DNA of 64,000 bases, taken from the IMG/VR virus record IMGVR_UViG_3300027747_002427; one strand, 5' to 3'. This stretch comes from a virus. Lineage: Duplodnaviria; Caudoviricetes. The position numbers were made by a program, and so were the translations under genes. Each line of letters begins with the position of its first letter. Position 1 is the stretch's first letter. Below are positions 3-56,127 of this stretch, piece by piece. The notes under the pieces are model-generated. The model did not search any database. It was given only the letters and a program-made list of their open reading frames with translations, and had not been told where the DNA came from.

Positions 3-3000
3 GTTTTAGGTACATTAAATCTAACAATTAAAGATCATCCAGATAATAGTATATATAATACATATTTTAATACAACATATCAAGATAGAACTTCTTTAAT
101 TTTAGCAAACGCCAATGATAAAAATGTTGTTACTCGTCCGCAAGAAAATTTAAATAATTATGCTTTTTATGGTAATACAAATGTATTACCCAAGATTAGT
201 GCTTCTTCTTTTAAATGGTCTATAGCTAATGATTTAGGATATTATTATTCCTTATCTTCTACAAAATTTAGTGATATATCAAGTATTAAACATTCCATAC
301 AAAATGGAGCTAGAACTACAAGAATAGGTTTAAGTGCTTATGATGCTACTATTCCTGGATGGAATATTGCTCACAACATTAAATCTCACACAACAATTTA
401 TACAATTCCAAGTAGTGAATTTTTCACACCTACAAAATTTATTGTATATCCACCTTACACCTGGCGACAAGGCAATAGTGGTTTAATAACTATATTAGAT
501 GGCTCTAATTTTACATTAGCGCAAGCTCCTACAGCTTATAGATATACAAAGACTTCTTCGCAACCTTTTTATCTTTCTGCTAACAAGGTAGCAATTTCTT
601 ATGAATATACATATGGATCTGATCAAATTTTCTTAGCTGCTAATTCTTCTAATAATTTTTCTGCAAGTATTCCATATGATCGCAATAACCAAGAAATATA
701 TTCCCTATCCGGCATAAGTTTATCTTTATCTGCTTTTAATGGGATGTTTCCCAAAGTCAATGGTTTGACTTATTATGGTTTAACGAGCAATGGAAGTTTG
801 ACCGGGTCCTATACAGGTAATTTTGCTATAACGTCTCAAACAATTCCAGCTAGAAATGCTATATATGGTTCAACTAGTGCTTTAAGTGCTTTTTACCAAA
901 ACCCTCGACTTGTAGATTTTCAAACAATGACATTGAGAGCTTCGGCTGTAGACACTGCCATTGTTTTTGACTACAATACTGTAACACAATTAGGAGTACA
1001 ATTTACACCTATTACCGCTATTAATTTAGAAGACAATCTTTTTGTCGGAGTATTACAAACTTTAACACCAGCAAATTCTTCTAATAGCCCTGTTAGATCA
1101 ACTCAAGATTTTAATAAAGGAGTAGTTACATATACTTTATCTTCTAAAGAAGGTGGATGGCTTGGTCATATTGATGTACCAGCTGTTAATGGCTTGTATG
1201 ATTTATTTATTTTAAACGTAGGAGACGCTTCTATACCGTTTAATGTAAGTCCTTATAAATTTAATTCTTTAGTATTAACAGCCAGTGCTACAGTTCCAAT
1301 TTCTATACCTTCTAGTACATTTAACGGATATACAACAGCTCAATATTCTGGAAGTAGAGACTTGTGGAGTACAATATATCAAGTAATTTCATCAGAAAGA
1401 CATTCTTTAGTAGCATATAGTACTAGTGTAAAACCAGAAATATATCTTTCATCTTATTATGCTTTAACCGGAGACTCTATAAGAATAGAATTTGAAACTC
1501 CAGAATTGGCAAAAGAAATTGAAAATGTAGAAATTGTATCTTACAATATATATTTCGGTGATGGATTATCTGCCCAACATTTAATAAATGATGTTGTATA
1601 TCACTCTTATGATTCCAAAGGAGTTTACATACTTTCTTATGATGTAAATTATAATAATGGTCTCACTCGTAGCTTTACGTTACAACAACATCCTATAACA
1701 GTTTTTAATAGATGGCCAACATATAACCAGTCTGAAATACGTTTATTGTCTGAAGCTCAACTTACATTGCCTTGGACACTAGATCAAATTTATATACAAC
1801 CTAATGAATTCGGTGAAGCTGATATATTCAATACATCTATTAGCCGTCTTAATGATAATCTAACATATCTAAAAAATAATATACAAACCATTAACACGGA
1901 TGCTCCTACATTGTATTATGGTTGGCTTGGATGTAATACAAAAGATTTAGCAAGAGGCATACAATGGCATACTTTAGATTTCCATAATTTACATTATAAT
2001 AATACAAATTATGCTACTTCTAACGGATTTTCTTATTTTTCAAATATAAGAGACTTCGTAGAAACAGATAATGAAATACTAGTGTTAGATGGTAAAAATT
2101 TAAGAGCATTTTCTGCGGCTAAAATACCAACGGAAATAATATTTGATAATAATCTCCAAATTAAACAATTATTAGTCAATCCAGTGTCTATAGATTATGA
2201 CGGAGATAATAACAATTTATATTTGGTAGATAACTATAAAAACAAAGTTTATAAATTTAATTTAAGTTTTGATTACATATCAGAAATTAATATTCAATTG
2301 GCTGTTGGTGGATTTGGTACTATAAACGATTCTAATAAATTTAATGCCCCTTCTGAAGTATTGTATAGCAATGATAATGTATTTGTTTTGGATTACGGTA
2401 ATCGTTGTGTCAAACAATATACTCAAGATTTAAATTGGATTTATACATATTACACAGAAGAATTTGCAACCAATATACCTTCTAATATAGCCATACACCC
2501 TACAACGACATTACCTTATGTTGCCACAAACAATTACAAAATTTATGTATTTGATCACATGGGATCAGTTGTGAGTAATTTTACTTTATACGAAGCTAGA
2601 ACAGAAGGTCATAAAATAGTCAAAATTTTATTTGATCAAGGAGGCGATTTCTTTTATGTTGTAACAACAAAAAATATATTTAAATATTCTATTGTAGGTA
2701 CTTTTATATCTATAGTAAACATTCCTTATGGAAGTTTAAATAATTCTAATGGAGCTATATTAAATTACACATCTGGAAAATATTTTTCTCATAGATCTTT
2801 ATCTTTTTCAACAAATAATAGTATAATAAGATGTCAGGATATAGTAACTTTATTCAAAGTTGGAGAAGGTCTTCCTTATGAATATTGGACAGAAGATCAA
2901 TTACTAGTAGGTAGAGATGAATTTGCTCAAGACATAGTTTATAATAGAACATTTACTCGATTAGTCCAAAATATTAAATCTTTTAGAAATACAATGGATT

Positions 3001-3455
3001 CTCGTTTTATTATAGCAACAGAACAGACTCCTTATGGAACTGTAAGGTATTTTGCCAAATCACCAATAGCCGTTGCTAGTAGACCAATATTTTCAAGTGA
3101 TATAGAAAATGAAACAATAAAAGTAGGCGTTAATGAATTTAATGTGCCTCAAGTTATTAATAGAGAATTGAAAAAAATATATGAAGCTTTACAATATTTA
3201 ACTGGATATCTTTCTATTACAGATGTTAGACTTTTGAGCGGAATTAATACTGGATGCACGGATCCATTTTGTTGGTCCTGGAAATCTATGTCTTGTTACA
3301 ACCTCTCTTTACCTGTAGTAAGAATATGTAATATCAACCCTATTACCTATGCAGAATTAGAGTCTTCTTATCCAAGCACTTATGTATATGCCCCTTCTAA
3401 TACTTGGGGATCTGCTACGTCACATTGTTGTGATCAAAATGTCAGTCCAATTTGA
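3..3455 (+). CDS. Large virion structural protein (5'-truncated) with PKD-like domain and NHL-type beta-propeller
   Basis: The frame of track ORF 744..3455 is open back to position 3, so the gene starts before the window. Motifs YNIYFGDG...HSYDSKGVY (PKD-like) and KFNAPSEV...VFVLDYGNRCVKQY (NHL-like). Confidence 0.7.
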   Translation, partial: VLGTLNLTIKDHPDNSIYNTYFNTTYQDRTSLILANANDKNVVTRPQENLNNYAFYGNTNVLPKISASSFKWSIANDLGYYYSLSSTKFSDISSIKHSIQNGARTTRIGLSAYDATIPGWNIAHNIKSHTTIYTIPSSEFFTPTKFIVYPPYTWRQGNSGLITILDGSNFTLAQAPTAYRYTKTSSQPFYLSANKVAISYEYTYGSDQIFLAANSSNNFSASIPYDRNNQEIYSLSGISLSLSAFNGMFPKVNGLTYYGLTSNGSLTGSYTGNFAITSQTIPARNAIYGSTSALSAFYQNPRLVDFQTMTLRASAVDTAIVFDYNTVTQLGVQFTPITAINLEDNLFVGVLQTLTPANSSNSPVRSTQDFNKGVVTYTLSSKEGGWLGHIDVPAVNGLYDLFILNVGDASIPFNVSPYKFNSLVLTASATVPISIPSSTFNGYTTAQYSGSRDLWSTIYQVISSERHSLVAYSTSVKPEIYLSSYYALTGDSIRIEFETPELAKEIENVEIVSYNIYFGDGLSAQHLINDVVYHSYDSKGVYILSYDVNYNNGLTRSFTLQQHPITVFNRWPTYNQSEIRLLSEAQLTLPWTLDQIYIQPNEFGEADIFNTSISRLNDNLTYLKNNIQTINTDAPTLYYGWLGCNTKDLARGIQWHTLDFHNLHYNNTNYATSNGFSYFSNIRDFVETDNEILVLDGKNLRAFSAAKIPTEIIFDNNLQIKQLLVNPVSIDYDGDNNNLYLVDNYKNKVYKFNLSFDYISEINIQLAVGGFGTINDSNKFNAPSEVLYSNDNVFVLDYGNRCVKQYTQDLNWIYTYYTEEFATNIPSNIAIHPTTTLPYVATNNYKIYVFDHMGSVVSNFTLYEARTEGHKIVKILFDQGGDFFYVVTTKNIFKYSIVGTFISIVNIPYGSLNNSNGAILNYTSGKYFSHRSLSFSTNNSIIRCQDIVTLFKVGEGLPYEYWTEDQLLVGRDEFAQDIVYNRTFTRLVQNIKSFRNTMDSRFIIATEQTPYGTVRYFAKSPIAVASRPIFSSDIENETIKVGVNEFNVPQVINRELKKIYEALQYLTGYLSITDVRLLSGINTGCTDPFCWSWKSMSCYNLSLPVVRICNINPITYAELESSYPSTYVYAPSNTWGSATSHCCDQNVSPI

Positions 3456-3470
3456 TAAATATTATTACTA

Positions 3471-6400
3471 ATGAGACCCATATCAAAATATCACCGCCAG
3501 AATCACCATACCTATACTTCAGATACTAATCCTGATGCGGGTCACGATCCTATAGCTAGTTATGATAATCCGTTTAGAGGTGATTTCGTATTAACAGGTG
3601 CTCTTAGTGCTATAGTTCCTCCAACTAGTGCCTATGCTGCAGTTTTCTTAGGTAGTAATGTTGGTGTAGGAACCGGTTCTCCTAATCAATTATTAACTGT
3701 TGCGGGAAATGTAAGTGCTTCTGGAGATTTAAACGTGGATGGAGATTTAGCTTTACAAGGTAGTTTTTTAACTAATTCCGATTTAAGAGCTAATAAAAAT
3801 CTTTTTGTAACTAATAACATATATGGCCTAGGTAGTTTAAGTGTCTCACAAGGAGCTTCAATTTCCAGGGCATTAACCGTAACTGCAACCGCTTCAGCAT
3901 ATACTTCTAGTTTCATGGGAGCTAATGTGGGTATAGCAACAATAGTTCCAAAATACCCATTACACGTTAATGGTAATACTTGGACTCAAGGCAATGCGTA
4001 TGTAACTGGAAATCTTTTCCTTAGTGGCGGTGTTATTTCAAGTACAACGGAAATGATTAGTAGCAGGGGATTAGACATTGTAAATTATAGTGGATCAACG
4101 ACAACATTAATGCTTAGACAAAGTGGTTATCAACCAATGTTTGTGGCAATGGCACAAGCTGCAACTGCTTTTTATATAGACGGAGATGTTACTGGAGGAT
4201 TTGTTGGCATTGGTTGCACTGCTCCTAATGCAAATTTAACTGTAAATGGAAATATTAGTTCTAGTTCTACTATTTGGACTACGATTTTATCAGCTAATGG
4301 TATAAATCTAGTTAATGGACAAGCCAATGATTTTAAAAGTCCTTCTATTTTTATTGGAGAAAATTTAAATAATTCTATTTCTGGATTTAATATAAAATAC
4401 GATGAATTAGTAGATAAACTTGTTGTTACAACGGTGTTTGGAACCACACCAAGTATTTCATCTATAGTAATAACCAACACATCTAATATTGGTATAAATA
4501 CGCCAAATCCAAATGCAGTTTTAACAATCAATGGAGATATCAGTGCCAATAATCGTATTATAGCTGGTTATAATAATTCAGCATCTAATTGCTCTAGCGT
4601 GTTAGGTGGTTGTAATAATAATGCAGATGGTGCTAATTCTTTCATTGGTGGCGGTGTAACAAATTTATCAAACGGAACTCATTCCGTTGTATTAGGTGGC
4701 TGTATAAATTGTTCTCCTGGAGATTCTTCATCAGTAACTGGTGGAAAATTAAATTGTGCCACAGGAAATTTTTCACATATAGGCGGCGGCTGTTCTAACG
4801 TATCTAGTGGTTGTTATGCCGCATTAGGAGGAGGGTTTGATAGTACAGCTTCTGGTAATTATTCCTTTGTAGGAAGTGGATATCAAAATACAGCTTCTGG
4901 TAAGAATACATCCGTAGTAGGAGGCAAAGCCAATACTGCATCAGCTTGTTATTCATTTATTGCTGGTGGTAATAGTAATACTTCTGCTTATTGCAATACA
5001 TTTATTTTAGGATCTAATTTAACTGCAAGTAGTAAAGATTACACATATGTTAATAATATCAGTTCTCAAGGAGCTGTGTGTGGAACTTATTACGGTGATG
5101 GATCTTTATTAACTGGTATTCATGCTTGTGGAAGTCCCTTTACAACTGGTAGCACTTTATCTTCTATAAAACCATTTGATGGATGTAATTGTGTTACTGC
5201 TGCTGGTTGTTTCTCTTCTATAGGTGGAGGGCGTTGTAATTGTATATCTCAAACGCATTCAACAATCAGTGGTGGATATAATAATAAAATAGCAAATGCT
5301 TGTTCTGTTATTGCTGGTGGTCGCTTGAATTGTATTACTTCAACTTATTCATTCATTGGAGGTGGTATATCTAACAGAGCAGACGGTTCTACCAATGCCA
5401 TCATAGGTGGATCTAATAATTGTGCCACTTCAGACGCGGGTAATTCTTTTATTGGTGGCGGATATTATAATATAGTGGATGCCAATTATACAGTAATTGG
5501 TGGTGGAACAAATAATTGCACAGGTTGCACAAGCTCTGTTGTAGCCGGCGGATCAATCAATTGTGCAATGGGTTGTTTCTCTATAGTGGCAGGAGGATGT
5601 AGCAATACAGCAAATCAAAACTATACTGGTATTTTAGGTGGATGTTGCAATACTACAAATCATCAAAATACATTTATCTTAGGTTCTAACTTAACAACAG
5701 CACAAGCAAATTACACTTATGTAAATAATTTAAGTTCTCAGGGCAACATTGTAGCTCGAACTTTAACTGTTAATAAAGACATTAATGTCACTGGATTTGT
5801 TAAGAATAGACCTCGCAAGGCTATGGTGAGTGGTACCGTAAGAGCTATCTTCATTAAAACTGGAGGAACTGGATATGGCTCTGCTCCTAATGTTTCTATA
5901 AGCGCACCGACAGATACAACAGACACAGAACAAGCAACAGCACACGCAATAATTCAGAATGGAAAAGTTGTTAATATAGTAATAGATAACCCGGGTAGAG
6001 GATATTTAGAAGACCCTACAATAAACATAGTTGGCGGCGGCGGTGGAGGTGCTGCAGCATTCGCAATAGCTACAATTGGTGGACATGCTTATTATAATAA
6101 TAGATATAGTCATGCAACTGGAATTTTAGGAGAAGCATCTTCTCAAACAGATCAAACTAGATTATATGTAGCTGGATTTAATTACTACGGCAGTTTACCT
6201 ACAGGATATTACGGAACAAGTTATAATTCATCACCAGTTTCTGTAGCTATAAGTGATAGTGATCTTAATGTAAATGAAATTGTAAAATATTGGATGCCTG
6301 GTGATCGTATGTATGTTTTAGATTCAACTGGTACATTATGGGGAACTGGTATAAACGTCCATGGAGAATTGGGAGTAGGAACTACAATACATCAAACAAG

Positions 6401-35713: not shown

Positions 35714-36523
35714 ATGGACACATACACACTAAACCAAGCAATTCAGATGGCGCCAGCAATCGCCGCAACGGAGCCTTCACCGATCGTTTCAGATCGCTAC
35801 AGCTTCATCAACACCGGAGAGTTCCTCGAGAAGGCAATCGACTCTGGATGGACAATCCGCAACGTTCGTCAGGGCAAGAGCCGTTACGGAATGCATAAGG
35901 TAGACCTCATCCAGACCCAACACAAAGACAGCAGTCTTGTTGGTGAGGGTATGCCTCAGATCAGCATCATCAATAGCCACGACCGCTCCAAGAGGTTCCA
36001 GGTTATGATGGGCTTCTTCCGTTTGGTTTGTTCTAACGGTCTTGTGGTTGCCACAGGAGCTAACCTTAATATCCGAGCAATGCATCGCTTCGGTGATGAT
36101 AAGCTCTCCACGCTCATGAGCACTATGGAGCAGGGCATCAAGCAGTTCAGCGTCATCGGACAGAAGGTTGAGCAGTTCCGAGATCGTATCCTCTCTCAGG
36201 AAGAGAAGAACGCTCTTGCGCGCTTCGCTCACTACATCAGGTTCCGCTATCGCCAGAACCTTCCTACCTCCATCAAGCCAGATGCACTCCTCGGAGTTCG
36301 TCGGGATGTTGATCAGGGTAATGATCTCTGGAGGGTTTACAATACCATTCAGGAGAACATGACTCACGGTGGTCATAACCTCGGACGAGGTCTCACCCGT
36401 CTCGAAGACGACACTCGGTTCAATAGTGAGTTCTGGGTCGGTGCAGAGTCCGCTCTCACAACTCGCGGAGCAGATTTCGAAAGGACCCTCAAGACCCTCT
36501 TCCCTAAGAAGGAGAGGGCTTAA
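35714..36523 (+). CDS. DUF932/DUF945 family protein
   Basis: SDRYSFINT...NSHDRS...GFFRLVCSNGLVV...DLWRVYNTIQEN pattern; GC-richer codons than its neighbours. Confidence 0.75.
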   Translation: MDTYTLNQAIQMAPAIAATEPSPIVSDRYSFINTGEFLEKAIDSGWTIRNVRQGKSRYGMHKVDLIQTQHKDSSLVGEGMPQISIINSHDRSKRFQVMMGFFRLVCSNGLVVATGANLNIRAMHRFGDDKLSTLMSTMEQGIKQFSVIGQKVEQFRDRILSQEEKNALARFAHYIRFRYRQNLPTSIKPDALLGVRRDVDQGNDLWRVYNTIQENMTHGGHNLGRGLTRLEDDTRFNSEFWVGAESALTTRGADFERTLKTLFPKKERA

Positions 36524-53043: not shown

Positions 53044-53085
53044 TTGGGGGTTGACTTTTCCCCGGTAATCCGTTATACTAATAGT

Positions 53086-53757
53086 ATGAAAAATAAGAAC
53101 AAGCAAAAGAAGATTTCCAGGAAACAAGCCATCGCTGATTCCCGGGTACCAGTAAAGGTTTCCCGGAAACGTATTCCCAAGAACGAGCGTATCAACAAGG
53201 CAGACCAGTTTGAATACCTAGGAATTGATACCTGGGTAAAGACTTTCCAGGGAACTAAGAAGTTCCCACATAATAAGATTACCTGTTCTGAATGCCGGCA
53301 TAATACGGTTTCCATGTTTGGTAACCAGCTAGCGAATTACCTGGCAAAGTATAACGGGGATACCCGGAAACTCCTTACCGAGTTCAAGTGTCGCGTATGT
53401 CGTTCCCTGGACAAAGAGGCTATCAAGTTGAAGGAGCCTAAAGAGCCTAAGGTAAAGGTAGAAAAGGAAAAGGTATTCCTTTCCCCGGAAGAGTGGGAAG
53501 CTCGTAAGGAGGAGGTTCGTAAGACCCTTCCTAAGATGGATCCTAACTACCAAACCCAGGAAATCGATTTGGTTAAGGACAAGGAGACGTGTTCCCAGGT
53601 AACAGCCATGGCATGCTGGCGCCCAGACATCTTCCTCAATCTCGGATGCGCCGAGTGTGTTCTACAGAAGAATTGTGCTTGTCCAATTAAGGATATCAAT
53701 CGTATTCCAGACAATCGCCCAAGGAAATTCAAGAGGGCAGTAACGAAAGCCGCTTGA
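53086..53757 (+). CDS. Early basic Cys-rich (probable Zn-binding) protein MKNKN...
   Basis: CSEC...CRVC and C-x-C...CAEC...CAC clusters; promoter TTGACT(53051)-17-TATACT. Confidence 0.7.
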   Translation: MKNKNKQKKISRKQAIADSRVPVKVSRKRIPKNERINKADQFEYLGIDTWVKTFQGTKKFPHNKITCSECRHNTVSMFGNQLANYLAKYNGDTRKLLTEFKCRVCRSLDKEAIKLKEPKEPKVKVEKEKVFLSPEEWEARKEEVRKTLPKMDPNYQTQEIDLVKDKETCSQVTAMACWRPDIFLNLGCAECVLQKNCACPIKDINRIPDNRPRKFKRAVTKAA

Positions 53758-54628: not shown

Positions 54629-54704
54629 GCCTGTGTAGTCCAACGGCAGAGACAAGCGACTTAAAATCGCTCCAGTATCGGTTCGAATCCGATCACAGGT
54701 ACCA
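54629..54704 (+). tRNA. trnL: tRNA-Leu(UAA), short variable loop, CCA encoded
   Basis: GCCTGTG/CACAGGT acceptor, AGCGA-CTTAAAA-TCGCT anticodon arm, ATCGG-TTCGAAT-CCGAT T arm; 76 nt. Confidence 0.9.
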
Positions 54705-54748
54705 CTTTAAGATTGACCTTTCCCACCAATTGCTATAATATATAAACA

Positions 54749-54892
54749 ATGAAACACCTCCTACACCTCTTAGGGTTTACTCAACGTAAGCCTTCACTCC
54801 TCCTCATGCATATGTGTGACGTCACTCACGGCACCTGGCTTCAGGATCTTTATCGTACCAATCGTCTTAGCGACTACAACGTAAAGAAGTAA
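54749..54892 (+). CDS. Early hypothetical 47-aa protein (not in track)
   Basis: TTGACC promoter at 54713; translated by hand. Confidence 0.5.
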   Translation: MKHLLHLLGFTQRKPSLLLMHMCDVTHGTWLQDLYRTNRLSDYNVKK

Positions 54893-54893
54893 C

Positions 54894-55115
54894 ATGATCT
54901 GGCCTAAAGACCCTCCAGTGACTCGTTCCGAATTCCGCCGAGCTTTGAATCTTCATTGTCATAATAAGCTTGGAGTCAGCTTCAGTGACCTTCCAGACAT
55001 TATCAATATCGATGACGTATGGTGGGAGGGACAGACCATTGGAGAAGCTCTCACTATGATTAACAGTTGTATTGAAGACTTTAAAGAAGAAATGGGTGTT
55101 GCACTTTCCCACTAA
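54894..55115 (+). CDS. Early hypothetical protein
   Basis: 73-aa ORF coupled to the previous stop. Confidence 0.6.
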   Translation: MIWPKDPPVTRSEFRRALNLHCHNKLGVSFSDLPDIINIDDVWWEGQTIGEALTMINSCIEDFKEEMGVALSH

Positions 55116-55136
55116 CAGGAGTATAATAATAATAAT

Positions 55137-55304
55137 ATGATCATCGAATTCTCACCTGGCAAGTTACCAAAGAGTAAAGAAGCTTTGAAGGATATTATCC
55201 TCGAAGCAGTCAAGAAGTCTTCAACGAACCCTGATGCCGTTAATGCCGGCCGACAGCCTCAGGACAATAATACAAAGGCCGGCGTTACTCAATATGCAAA
55301 CTAA
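55137..55304 (+). CDS. Early hypothetical 55-aa protein (not in track)
   Basis: TTGCAC-17-TATAAT-9-ATG. Confidence 0.5.
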   Translation: MIIEFSPGKLPKSKEALKDIILEAVKKSSTNPDAVNAGRQPQDNNTKAGVTQYAN

Positions 55305-55512
55305 AGTCACACTCACGGATCTAATTCGTAATATCTTGACCGCAGAGCAGGAGTTGTCCGTAAAGGATATCCTTACTAAAGTACAAGAGACTATTGCAGG
55401 CGAGCAGCTGACCATCAAGGCCGATTACCGTAAGGTTTATCGTCACCTTCGTACGTGCGCCACTAAGACGGCACGCGGTCAGTTCTCCCTCACCGAGACC
55501 TCTGCCTCCTAA
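55294..55512 (+). CDS. Small winged-HTH-like protein
   Basis: LIRNIL...LSVKDILTKV...VYRHL...RGQFSL pattern; ATG 55294 is preferred to the track start 55234. Confidence 0.5.
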   Translation: MQTKVTLTDLIRNILTAEQELSVKDILTKVQETIAGEQLTIKADYRKVYRHLRTCATKTARGQFSLTETSAS

Positions 55513-55536
55513 AGGTAAGTCTCGGCAACCATCAAC

Positions 55537-55627
55537 ACTGGGTTAATGTAATTGGAAGCATCGCACAGCTTATATCTGTGAATCCCTAGATGAGGGACGA
55601 GCATCGGTTCGATTCCGATACCCAGTA
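55537..55627 (+). tRNA. Atypical tRNA with UAU (Ile) anticodon and 22-nt variable region containing a hairpin
   Basis: ACTGGGT/ACCCAGT acceptor plus A73, ATGT/GCAT D stem with GG, CACAG-CTTATAT-CTGTG anticodon arm, TCCCT/AGGGA extra stem, ATCGG-TTCGATT-CCGAT T arm. Confidence 0.75.
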
Positions 55628-55633
55628 CTTTTT

Positions 55634-55810
55634 ATGACAGACACCAACACAACATCGAAAGAAGCAAAAGTATTCGCACTCTGCCAGGACCTGGAAGATA
55701 TGCGAGATCGTAAGAAGGCATCTAGCAAAGCCTTTAGCGATGAGATCAAGCGTATTCAAGCGGAGATCAAGGATCTTATAGATCCTTCCGAGCCTGAAGA
55801 AGCTCCATAG
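55634..55810 (+). CDS. 58-aa coiled-coil protein between tRNAs (not in track)
   Basis: MTDTNTTSKEAKVFALCQDLEDMRDRKK...; translated by hand. Confidence 0.55.
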   Translation: MTDTNTTSKEAKVFALCQDLEDMRDRKKASSKAFSDEIKRIQAEIKDLIDPSEPEEAP

Positions 55811-55816
55811 TATTAC

Positions 55817-55889
55817 GCCCTTGTAGCTCAATGGTCAGAGCAGTCGGCTCATAACTGATTGGTTGGGGGTTCGAATCCCTCCGGGGGCA
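55817..55889 (+). tRNA. tRNA with CAU anticodon (elongator Met or Ile2)
   Basis: GCCCTTG/CGGGGGC acceptor (G1-C72, so not initiator), GTCGG-CTCATAA-CTGAT anticodon arm; CCA not encoded. Confidence 0.9.
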
Positions 55890-55895
55890 CTCTAT

Positions 55896-55971
55896 GCATC
55901 GGTAGCTCAGTGGATAGAGCAGGGGTTTTCTAAACCCTTGGTCGCAGGTTCGATCCCTGCCCGATGTACCA
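55896..55971 (+). tRNA. trnR: tRNA-Arg(UCU), CCA encoded
   Basis: GCATCGG/CCGATGT acceptor, GGGGT-TTTCTAA-ACCCT anticodon arm. Confidence 0.92.
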
Positions 55972-55974
55972 TTT

Positions 55975-56046
55975 GGAATCGTAGCTCAATGGTAGAGCAG
56001 TAGACTTTTAATCTATTGGTTATGGGTTCGAGTCCCATCGATTCCA
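55975..56046 (+). tRNA. trnK: tRNA-Lys(UUU)
   Basis: GGAATCG/CGATTCC acceptor, GTAGA-CTTTTAA-TCTAT anticodon arm; CCA not encoded. Confidence 0.92.
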
Positions 56047-56127
56047 CTTTAATACAACAGCATGATATAATAGCGCCGGCCTCTCTATTATCGTGAATTT
56101 TCCCACTAAATGATTGATACTAATAGT

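Follow-up and report, generated by a model that had tools for sequence, protein, structure and literature searches.

The 64,000-nucleotide (nt) stretch of viral DNA analysed here (the window), taken from IMG/VR record IMGVR_UViG_3300027747_002427, carries at positions 55537–55627 of its plus strand a genuine tRNA gene, far beyond what chance would produce, which combines a UAU anticodon with a second hairpin displaying GAU in its loop. The gene very probably specifies a functional tRNA that decodes AUA as Ile independently of TilS and lysidine. More tentatively, we infer that the GAU arm is possibly a natural pseudo-anticodon, an identity tag read by the anticodon-binding domain of isoleucyl-tRNA synthetase (IleRS) and helping the UAU tRNA to be charged. 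AUA is the one sense codon that demands a dedicated and essential bacterial enzyme, TilS, the reason being that IleRS is a poor acceptor of a plain UAU anticodon, which may moreover misread AUG.

Structure of the two-armed tRNA

All of the features listed for this gene in a preliminary description, made from the sequence alone, were present: the acceptor, D, anticodon and T stems, the UAU anticodon, A73 and an extra hairpin. The tRNA-finder check that it had proposed was also positive, with ARAGORN and Rfam both calling a tRNA with a UAU anticodon. ARAGORN reported tRNA-Ile(tat) of 92 nt (55537–55628), and the Rfam tRNA model RF00005, run with relaxed speed filters, gave 42.5 bits against a gathering threshold of 29 (E = 4.5e-8). 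With its default filters, Rfam missed the gene when the entire window was scanned. Both hairpins were retained in a single-sequence fold (z = −2.8).

On the evidence of ARAGORN, Rfam and the sequence, the gene runs from tRNA position 1 to 73 without an encoded CCA. The acceptor stem is a perfect 7 bp, formed by ACTGGGT (55537–55543) and ACCCAGT (55620–55626). The D arm (55546–55561), assigned from the sequence and ARAGORN, consists of a 4-bp stem, ATGT/GCAT, with one U-G pair and the loop AATTGGAA containing G18 and G19. A 2-nt spacer (CG, 55562–55563) leads to the true anticodon arm (55564–55580), in which the 5-bp stem CACAG/CTGTG closes the loop CUUAUAU (55569–55575), with U33, A37 and the UAU anticodon at 55571–55573. 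After an AA dinucleotide comes the second, or GAU, arm (55583–55597), with stem TCCC(T)/(A)GGGA and loop (U)AGAUG(A); its closing U-A pair can reduce the loop from 7 to 5 nt in this particular tRNA. The GAU triplet (55589–55591) had been missed in the preliminary description. The hairpin is followed by CGAGC (55598–55602), a 5-nt linker that, judged by its length and covariation in related tRNAs, acts as an ordinary class I variable loop (positions 44–48), then by the T arm (55603–55619; 5-bp stem ATCGG/CCGAT, loop TTCGATT) and the discriminator A73 (55627). The gene thus shows the set of features by which the two-armed family was defined: a 7-nt UAU loop with U33 and A37, a second hairpin of 4–5 bp with loop Y-N-G-A-U-N-R, a linker of 5–6 nt (5 nt here), and A73.

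Covariation was assessed in an alignment of 66 diverse family members (alignment A1), to which the counts in the rest of this section refer. Standard pairs occupied 90.8% of the cells in the proposed stems, compared with 55.9% after shuffling and 36–46% with the partners slid. The homolog covariation check suggested earlier was therefore positive, and it included the extra arm; all seven acceptor pairs and the anticodon stem covaried as well. Within the extra-arm stem, three pairs were formed in approximately 100% of members, with both sides changed in 11, 36 and 13 sequences, and the fourth was formed in 85%. Since the bases at the position equivalent to 32:38 were unpaired in 48/66, the extra arm is best described as having four stem pairs and a loop of 7 nt. 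A candidate fifth pair beside the stem was rejected, as it was formed in 14/66. The alternative raised in the preliminary description, in which CG (55562–55563) pairs with CG (55598–55599), fared poorly, the equivalent columns pairing in 26/66 (39%).

The extra loop conformed to the consensus Y-N-G-A-U-N-A. Numbered as an anticodon loop, position 32 was a pyrimidine in 66/66 members, position 33 was A in 55, U in 6 and G in 4, positions 34 and 35 were G and A, respectively, in 66/66, and position 36 was U in 65/66. Position 37 varied (U in 36, A in 16, C in 9, G in 5), and position 38 was A in 52/66. The discriminator was A in 65/66. Mutual information analysis of the family alignment found no conserved intramolecular partner for the GAU loop, and for the linker it gave only core and Levitt-type signals. 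The linker 3′ of the hairpin measured 5–6 nt in 66/66, and that on the 5′ side 1–6 nt. The last base of the 3′ linker covaried with position 15, as A-U in 32/44 and G-C in 7/44, in the manner of a Levitt pair. A 3′ linker of this length carrying a Levitt pair indicates that the class I core is complete, the hairpin being an insertion that follows the anticodon stem and precedes the variable loop.

Orthologues and spread of the family

Orthologues with compensatory stem changes were found in four related T4-like phages. In the closest relative (G190, locus L424; capsid 91% identical), tRNA order was unchanged; acceptor and D arm were identical, the T stem carried the compensatory pair of strands GAGGG/CCCTC, and the extra arm read TCGC-CAGAUUA-GCGA followed by the linker CGAGC. 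The extra arm of a second relative, G191, read GCCC-UAGAUGA-GGGC, and the CGAGC linker was identical in L424, G191 and L062. Preservation of the stems by compensation points to purifying selection on structure, so that the gene is not a pseudogene. A decaying pseudo-tRNA with a chance insertion, which had been named among the outcomes that would overturn the earlier interpretation, is in practice refuted: the default Rfam filters did miss the gene and CCA is not encoded, but the orthologues keep every stem through compensatory changes, covariation is strong across the family and the extra loop is invariant.

The breadth of the family was examined by two scans. The forward scan searched IMG/VR viral contigs with a pattern comprising CTTATA, a long gap and a T loop (GGTTCGANTCC). 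Among the loci recovered, ARAGORN called at least about 60 UAU tRNAs of 87–96 nt, with very different bodies. Among the matches listed, AGAT occurred in the extra region of 50/61 long UAU tRNAs, and in 1/23 Leu(UAA), 0/21 Tyr and 0/48 Ser long-armed tRNAs from the same loci. In the reverse scan, the query was the hairpin motif with a T loop, and the anticodon was left free; tRNA-Ile(tat) accounted for 109/120 matches, and CTTATA was also present in 8 of the 10 uncalled ones. The GAU-hairpin motif and the UAU anticodon are tightly coupled. The set of 66 was chosen for a GAU-like motif; the unbiased figures are 50/61 and 109/120.

Members of the family occur in cultured phages, namely Sinorhizobium phage Phosso, where the gene is annotated as tRNA-Ile(tat), and Lactobacillus phages LpeD and Lpa804, which lack an annotation for it, as well as in bacterial genomes of several phyla. 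The LpeD record (MF787246) leaves unannotated both its two-armed tRNA-Ile(UAU) (L216, ~2998–3089) and a dozen other tRNAs. A few members have GAC in place of GAU in the extra loop (L425:1490–1579 of relative G192; L025; L222). A minority of long bacterial UAU tRNAs have Ser/Leu-like class II bodies without the GAU loop (L286, L298, L223, L308, L323), and these may be true missense or allo-type tRNAs, separate from the two-armed family.

Other searches returned little. When the tRNA region was compared with cultured phages by BLAST, the tRNA had no close relative among them, an exact-stem pattern gave zero matches, and a search with neighbouring proteins led to a single locus, without tRNAs. 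Metatranscriptome contigs from three runs of different studies matched the gene with 100% identity and showed no joint across the hairpin; as contigs from RNA libraries cannot show transcription, ends or processing, these were not counted as evidence of expression.

Meaning of AUA in the phage

To read the meaning of AUA, phage open reading frames (ORFs) were aligned to 80 related loci (capsid 64–91% identical), and the residues opposite each codon were recorded. Opposite ATA (332 positions), relatives had I in 38%, L in 18% and V in 15%. The corresponding values were I 49%, L 15% and V 13% for ATT, and I 55%, L 12% and V 15% for ATC; for TTA they were L 51%, I 14% and V 8%. In a likelihood test with one vote per position, in which the relatives' own ATA codons were ignored, the ATA profile gave log-likelihoods of −705.5 for Ile, −773.5 for Val, −810.6 for Leu and −959.0 for Met. 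Judged by its substitution profile, AUA is Ile in this phage.

This result bears directly on the proposal, made in the preliminary description, that the tRNA could be charged with Leu and recode AUA. The suggested inspection of Leu columns in phage proteins found AUA positions aligning like Ile codons, and Leu charging is further disfavoured by the class I-like body with its 4-bp D stem and by GAU in the hairpin loop. The same evidence applies to a broader alternative, that a class II tRNA of the Leu, Ser or Tyr type was mutated to UAU and inserts Leu or Ser at AUA. Such an origin would account for the long extra region and for A73; it has precedents in the nev-tRNAs charged with Leu (PMC3333845) and in allo-tRNA(UAU) (PMC5389517), and Ser/Leu-bodied bacterial UAU tRNAs without the GAU loop exist at L286 and L298. 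It is nevertheless highly improbable here. Apart from the Ile-like rather than Leu-like profile, the tRNA has a 4-bp D stem, a 7/5 acceptor/T branch in place of 8/4 or 9/3, and a full 5–6 nt variable loop with a Levitt pair after the hairpin, and it lacks the G73 on which Ser identity depends. Moreover, in Actinomyces the family replaces TilS, and there AUA must remain Ile (see below). Since AUA makes up 41% of the Ile codons of the phage, recoding would rewrite approximately 890 positions.

Absence of TilS in Actinomyces with the two-armed tRNA

The bacterial members provided a second view of how the tRNA may function. In a sample of 71 Actinomycetaceae genomes, the long UAU tRNA was present in three, which were exactly the three without TilS; the other 68 have TilS. 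Two further Actinomyces genomes likewise had the tRNA and lacked TilS. As a control, the TilS search was positive in 14/14 reference genomes. The Actinomyces gene lies in a chromosomal setting, with a NIF3 gene and an ordinary class II tRNA-Leu(UAA) beside it, and its extra loop, CUGAUAA, is letter-identical to the anticodon loop of tRNA-Ile(GAU). As the sole visible AUA reader in this clade, the two-armed tRNA must accept Ile. Bypass of TilS, one of the possibilities raised at the outset, thus gained support, both from the exact match of tRNA presence with TilS absence in the 71 genomes and from AUA acting as Ile in the phage. Two others, nuclease evasion and a decoy role, were not indicated.

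Proposed role of the GAU arm

Under the proposal of a natural pseudo-anticodon, the UAU arm would read the codon AUA on the ribosome, and the GAU arm would signal isoleucine to the synthetase. By presenting the host IleRS with its preferred anticodon signals, the GAU arm could bring about charging with Ile in any host. The phage provides the tRNA from its early region, alongside tRNAs for UUA, AGA and AAA.

The composition of the arm is consistent with such a role. Identity of bacterial tRNA-Ile involves A73, C4-G69, U12-A23, C29-G41, G/L34, A35, U36, t6A37 and A38 (PMC9976931). The extra arm shows the Ile-type bases G34, A35, U36, A38 and Y32. C-G occupied the position equivalent to 29:41 in 80% of extra arms; for comparison, its frequency was 52% in genuine Ile-GAU arms, 29% in the true UAU arms and no more than 12% in the remaining tRNAs of these loci. 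In the phage tRNA, A73 and the A35, U36 and A37 of the true arm are present, its 29:41 pair is C-G, and its position 38 is U; the extra arm has G34, A35, U36 and a C-G pair at 29:41. Because the identity bases are present and U33 and a purine at 37 are absent, the extra arm appears to keep the elements read by the synthetase and to drop those needed by the ribosome. The IleRS of Escherichia coli charges tRNA-Ile(UAU) poorly, and the solution found in Mycoplasma mobile is an altered IleRS (PMC3575796). As a phage has no means of altering the IleRS of its host, tagging the tRNA instead would be plausible. In an engineered system, a pseudo-anticodon on the variable (V) arm can raise aminoacylation by a synthetase with a matching domain (PMC7590224).

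Several points weigh against this role, or against the wider interpretation of the family. Position 37 of the extra loop is usually U (and 33 usually A), so t6A37, a strong determinant for bacterial-type IleRS, would be missing from it. Class I synthetases approach from the D-arm side, and the variable region faces solvent; for the anticodon-binding domain of IleRS to reach it, the GAU arm may need to lie beside the anticodon arm or to take its place. The minor E. coli determinants C4-G69 and U12-A23 are absent from the phage tRNA, 4:69 and 12:23 both being G-C. TilS is kept by six other bacteria that have a two-armed tRNA, and in these, as in phage-infected cells, the tRNA is an addition and not a replacement. 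The TilS complementarity falls within one clade and therefore represents one evolutionary event. The family sets were gathered with patterns that fixed CTTATA or CAGATTAG plus a T loop, and frequencies within them are not unbiased. Lastly, IleRS itself has changed in the TilS-less Actinomyces, where its IleRS2 carries T in place of W at the position of Priestia megaterium W725 (RxRFW to RxRFT), and this enzyme may have adapted to read UAU directly.

The last of these points comes from a comparison of synthetase sequences. An IleRS2-type enzyme was present in 71/71 Actinomycetaceae genomes. Between 5 TilS-less and 24 TilS-positive sequences, only three sites were invariant within both groups yet different between them, the W to T site being one. 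A V to L change in the same helix and a Y to W change near the G34 pocket were also seen (loci L427–L434). Residue W725 of P. megaterium belongs to the ARD1 helix, which recognizes A35 and U36, and comes one turn after R721, itself a reader of these two bases (PMC13752280). The G34 pocket (Q961, R964, K965, L969) is kept in the TilS-less clade. Change of IleRS near the anticodon also fits co-adaptation with the new tRNA at the time of TilS loss.

It is also quite conceivable that the tRNA is an Ile-accepting AUA decoder whose GAU arm serves some purpose other than reading by IleRS. The arm could offer a handle to an enzyme that modifies U34 or another base, contribute to structure or tertiary contacts, act as an anti-determinant towards MetRS or other synthetases, limit the misreading of AUG, or shield the tRNA from host tRNA nucleases. 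The loop does differ from a true Ile anticodon loop at 33 and 37, class I geometry makes access to the arm doubtful, and a change in the anticodon-reading helix of the Actinomyces IleRS would have been unnecessary if the arm alone had solved recognition. Other purposes would not, however, readily explain why the invariant triplet is the other Ile anticodon, why Y32, A38 and the C29-G41-like pair are also IleRS identity elements, or why the Actinomyces loop is exactly that of tRNA-Ile(GAU); nor was a conserved partner complementary to GAU found within the tRNA.

If the pseudo-anticodon proposal is true, the charging half of the AUA problem would be solved on the tRNA itself, a new principle of tRNA identity in which identity is uncoupled from decoding. 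Phages could then install AUA decoding in any host without TilS, and translation of the AUA-rich genes of AT-rich phages in hosts with little use for this codon would be explained. The same device would have let one Actinomyces clade discard TilS, adding a case of TilS loss. It would also offer synthetic biology a ready-made, orthogonal-style scaffold, with one arm for identity and the other for the codon. For annotation, such genes escape Rfam at its default filters and are overlooked in some annotated phages, and anticodon-blind classifiers may call them Leu or Ser.

Genome context and codon use

The window is part of a 106.8-kb IMG/VR record with an estimated completeness of 50%; complete relatives measure approximately 211–230 kb. 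T4-type gp20 portal, gp23 capsid, gp15 and gp44 proteins are encoded in it and identify the source as a T4-like freshwater myovirus. PHROGs and Pfam searches of the flanking small genes and of most large genes in the window gave nothing useful.

The only five tRNAs in the record form a cluster on the plus strand (54629–56047), in the order Leu(UAA), Ile(UAU), a CAU tRNA, Arg(UCU) and Lys(UUU). Counted over 114 ORFs, codon frequencies per 1000 were 29.1 for ATA, 32.8 for ATT, 9.1 for ATC, 40.6 for TTA, 18.9 for AGA and 41.1 for AAA. The tRNA set of the phage fits its over-used A-ending codons. This agreement counts against the possibility that the two-armed tRNA is a decoy or other non-translational tRNA-like RNA, such as anticodon-nuclease bait, an IleRS sponge or a primer. 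Two anticodon-like loops could indeed lure tRNA-targeting defences, but the molecule has the full translational feature set (U33, A37, T loop, G18-G19, A73), its cluster matches the four over-used A-ending codons of the phage, and its relative is the sole candidate AUA decoder in the TilS-less Actinomyces. A non-translational function is accordingly considered very unlikely, and decoding of AUA as Ile is retained as the preferred reading.

Two codon regimes were observed in the phage. The gp23 gene, which lies outside the window (L340:12617–14065, minus strand), has 0 ATA and 22 ATC codons, and some early genes (window 35714–36523 and 53044–53757) are without ATA, TTA and AGA. Large structural genes use ATA as frequently as ATT.

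The neighbouring tRNAs have features of their own. The tRNA-Leu(UAA) (54629–54704) is only 76 nt long, with a 5-nt variable loop and no long arm, and has the 3-bp D stem and large D loop in the style of Leu tRNAs. The long-arm arrangement is thus inverted in the cluster, with the Leu tRNA lacking an arm and the Ile tRNA having one. The same short Leu design recurs in the closest relative (L424:769–846), and Lactobacillus phage LpeD encodes three Leu tRNAs of this kind (L216:4069–4144, 4409–4485 and 4696–4769). The CAU tRNA (55817–55890) has a G1-C72 pair, and is therefore not an initiator. Its C4-G69 acceptor pair is of the Ile type. This tRNA may be tRNA-Ile2, dependent on TilS, instead of an elongator Met tRNA, in which case the phage would own two AUA decoders. 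BLAST against phage annotations, which follow the anticodon, did not separate Met from Ile2 for this tRNA.

Comparison with known systems

In the full-text literature searched, no GAU-bearing extra arm on a tRNA-Ile(UAU) was found described; work on Lactobacillus tRNA-Ile(UAU) (PMID 29092074, PMID 35122395) lay outside the coverage and could show one. The phage gene belongs to a variant of tRNA-Ile(UAU) that is apparently undescribed.

A functional parallel is provided by the TilS-independent tRNA-Ile(UAU) of Mycoplasma mobile, Bifidobacterium and Neorickettsia ('tRNA-Ile3'; PMC3575796, PMC8450103), which shares the UAU anticodon, lysidine-free decoding of AUA as Ile and the absence of TilS. 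These tRNAs are described as ordinary, and M. mobile meets the recognition problem through Arg865 of its IleRS and on the side of its ribosome, whereas the phage tRNA has the GAU arm. A suppressor of tilS deletion in Bacillus subtilis, tRNA-Ile1 G34U (PMC3919564; Fabret et al. 2011), is reported as a UAU body derived from tRNA-Ile(GAU) that likewise reads AUA without TilS. It is a single-arm laboratory mutant, and of the two only the phage tRNA has a second hairpin.

Among tRNAs with long arms, those of class II (Leu, Ser, Tyr, Sec) also have a stem-loop between the anticodon and T arms and a length of approximately 90 nt. Their arm lies within positions 45–48, 1–2 nt before the T stem, and the bacterial D stem is 3 bp; in the phage tRNA, the hairpin is 5′ of a full variable loop and the D stem is 4 bp. 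The phage family differs further in its conserved GAU loop and its Ile identity. The nematode nev-tRNA-Ile(UAU) (PMC3333845, PMC4300185) and allo-tRNA(UAU) (PMC5389517) are likewise long-armed with UAU. However, nev-tRNAs have Leu-type bodies and are charged with Leu, and allo-tRNAs have an 8/4 or 9/3 branch and Ser identity, while the phage tRNA is class I-like, with a 7/5 branch and a GAU loop, and AUA stays Ile.

An analogue of the proposed mechanism is the synthetic pseudo-anticodon tRNA of Mukai, in which a second anticodon-like hairpin on the variable arm similarly recruits a synthetase anticodon-binding domain and boosts charging (PMC7590224). That design pairs an allo-tRNA chassis with a HisRS bearing an added domain, whereas the arm of the phage tRNA occurs naturally and would have the unmodified IleRS of the host as its partner. 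Outside the two-armed family itself, none of the compared systems joins a UAU arm and a conserved GAU arm to an Ile-type body of class I.

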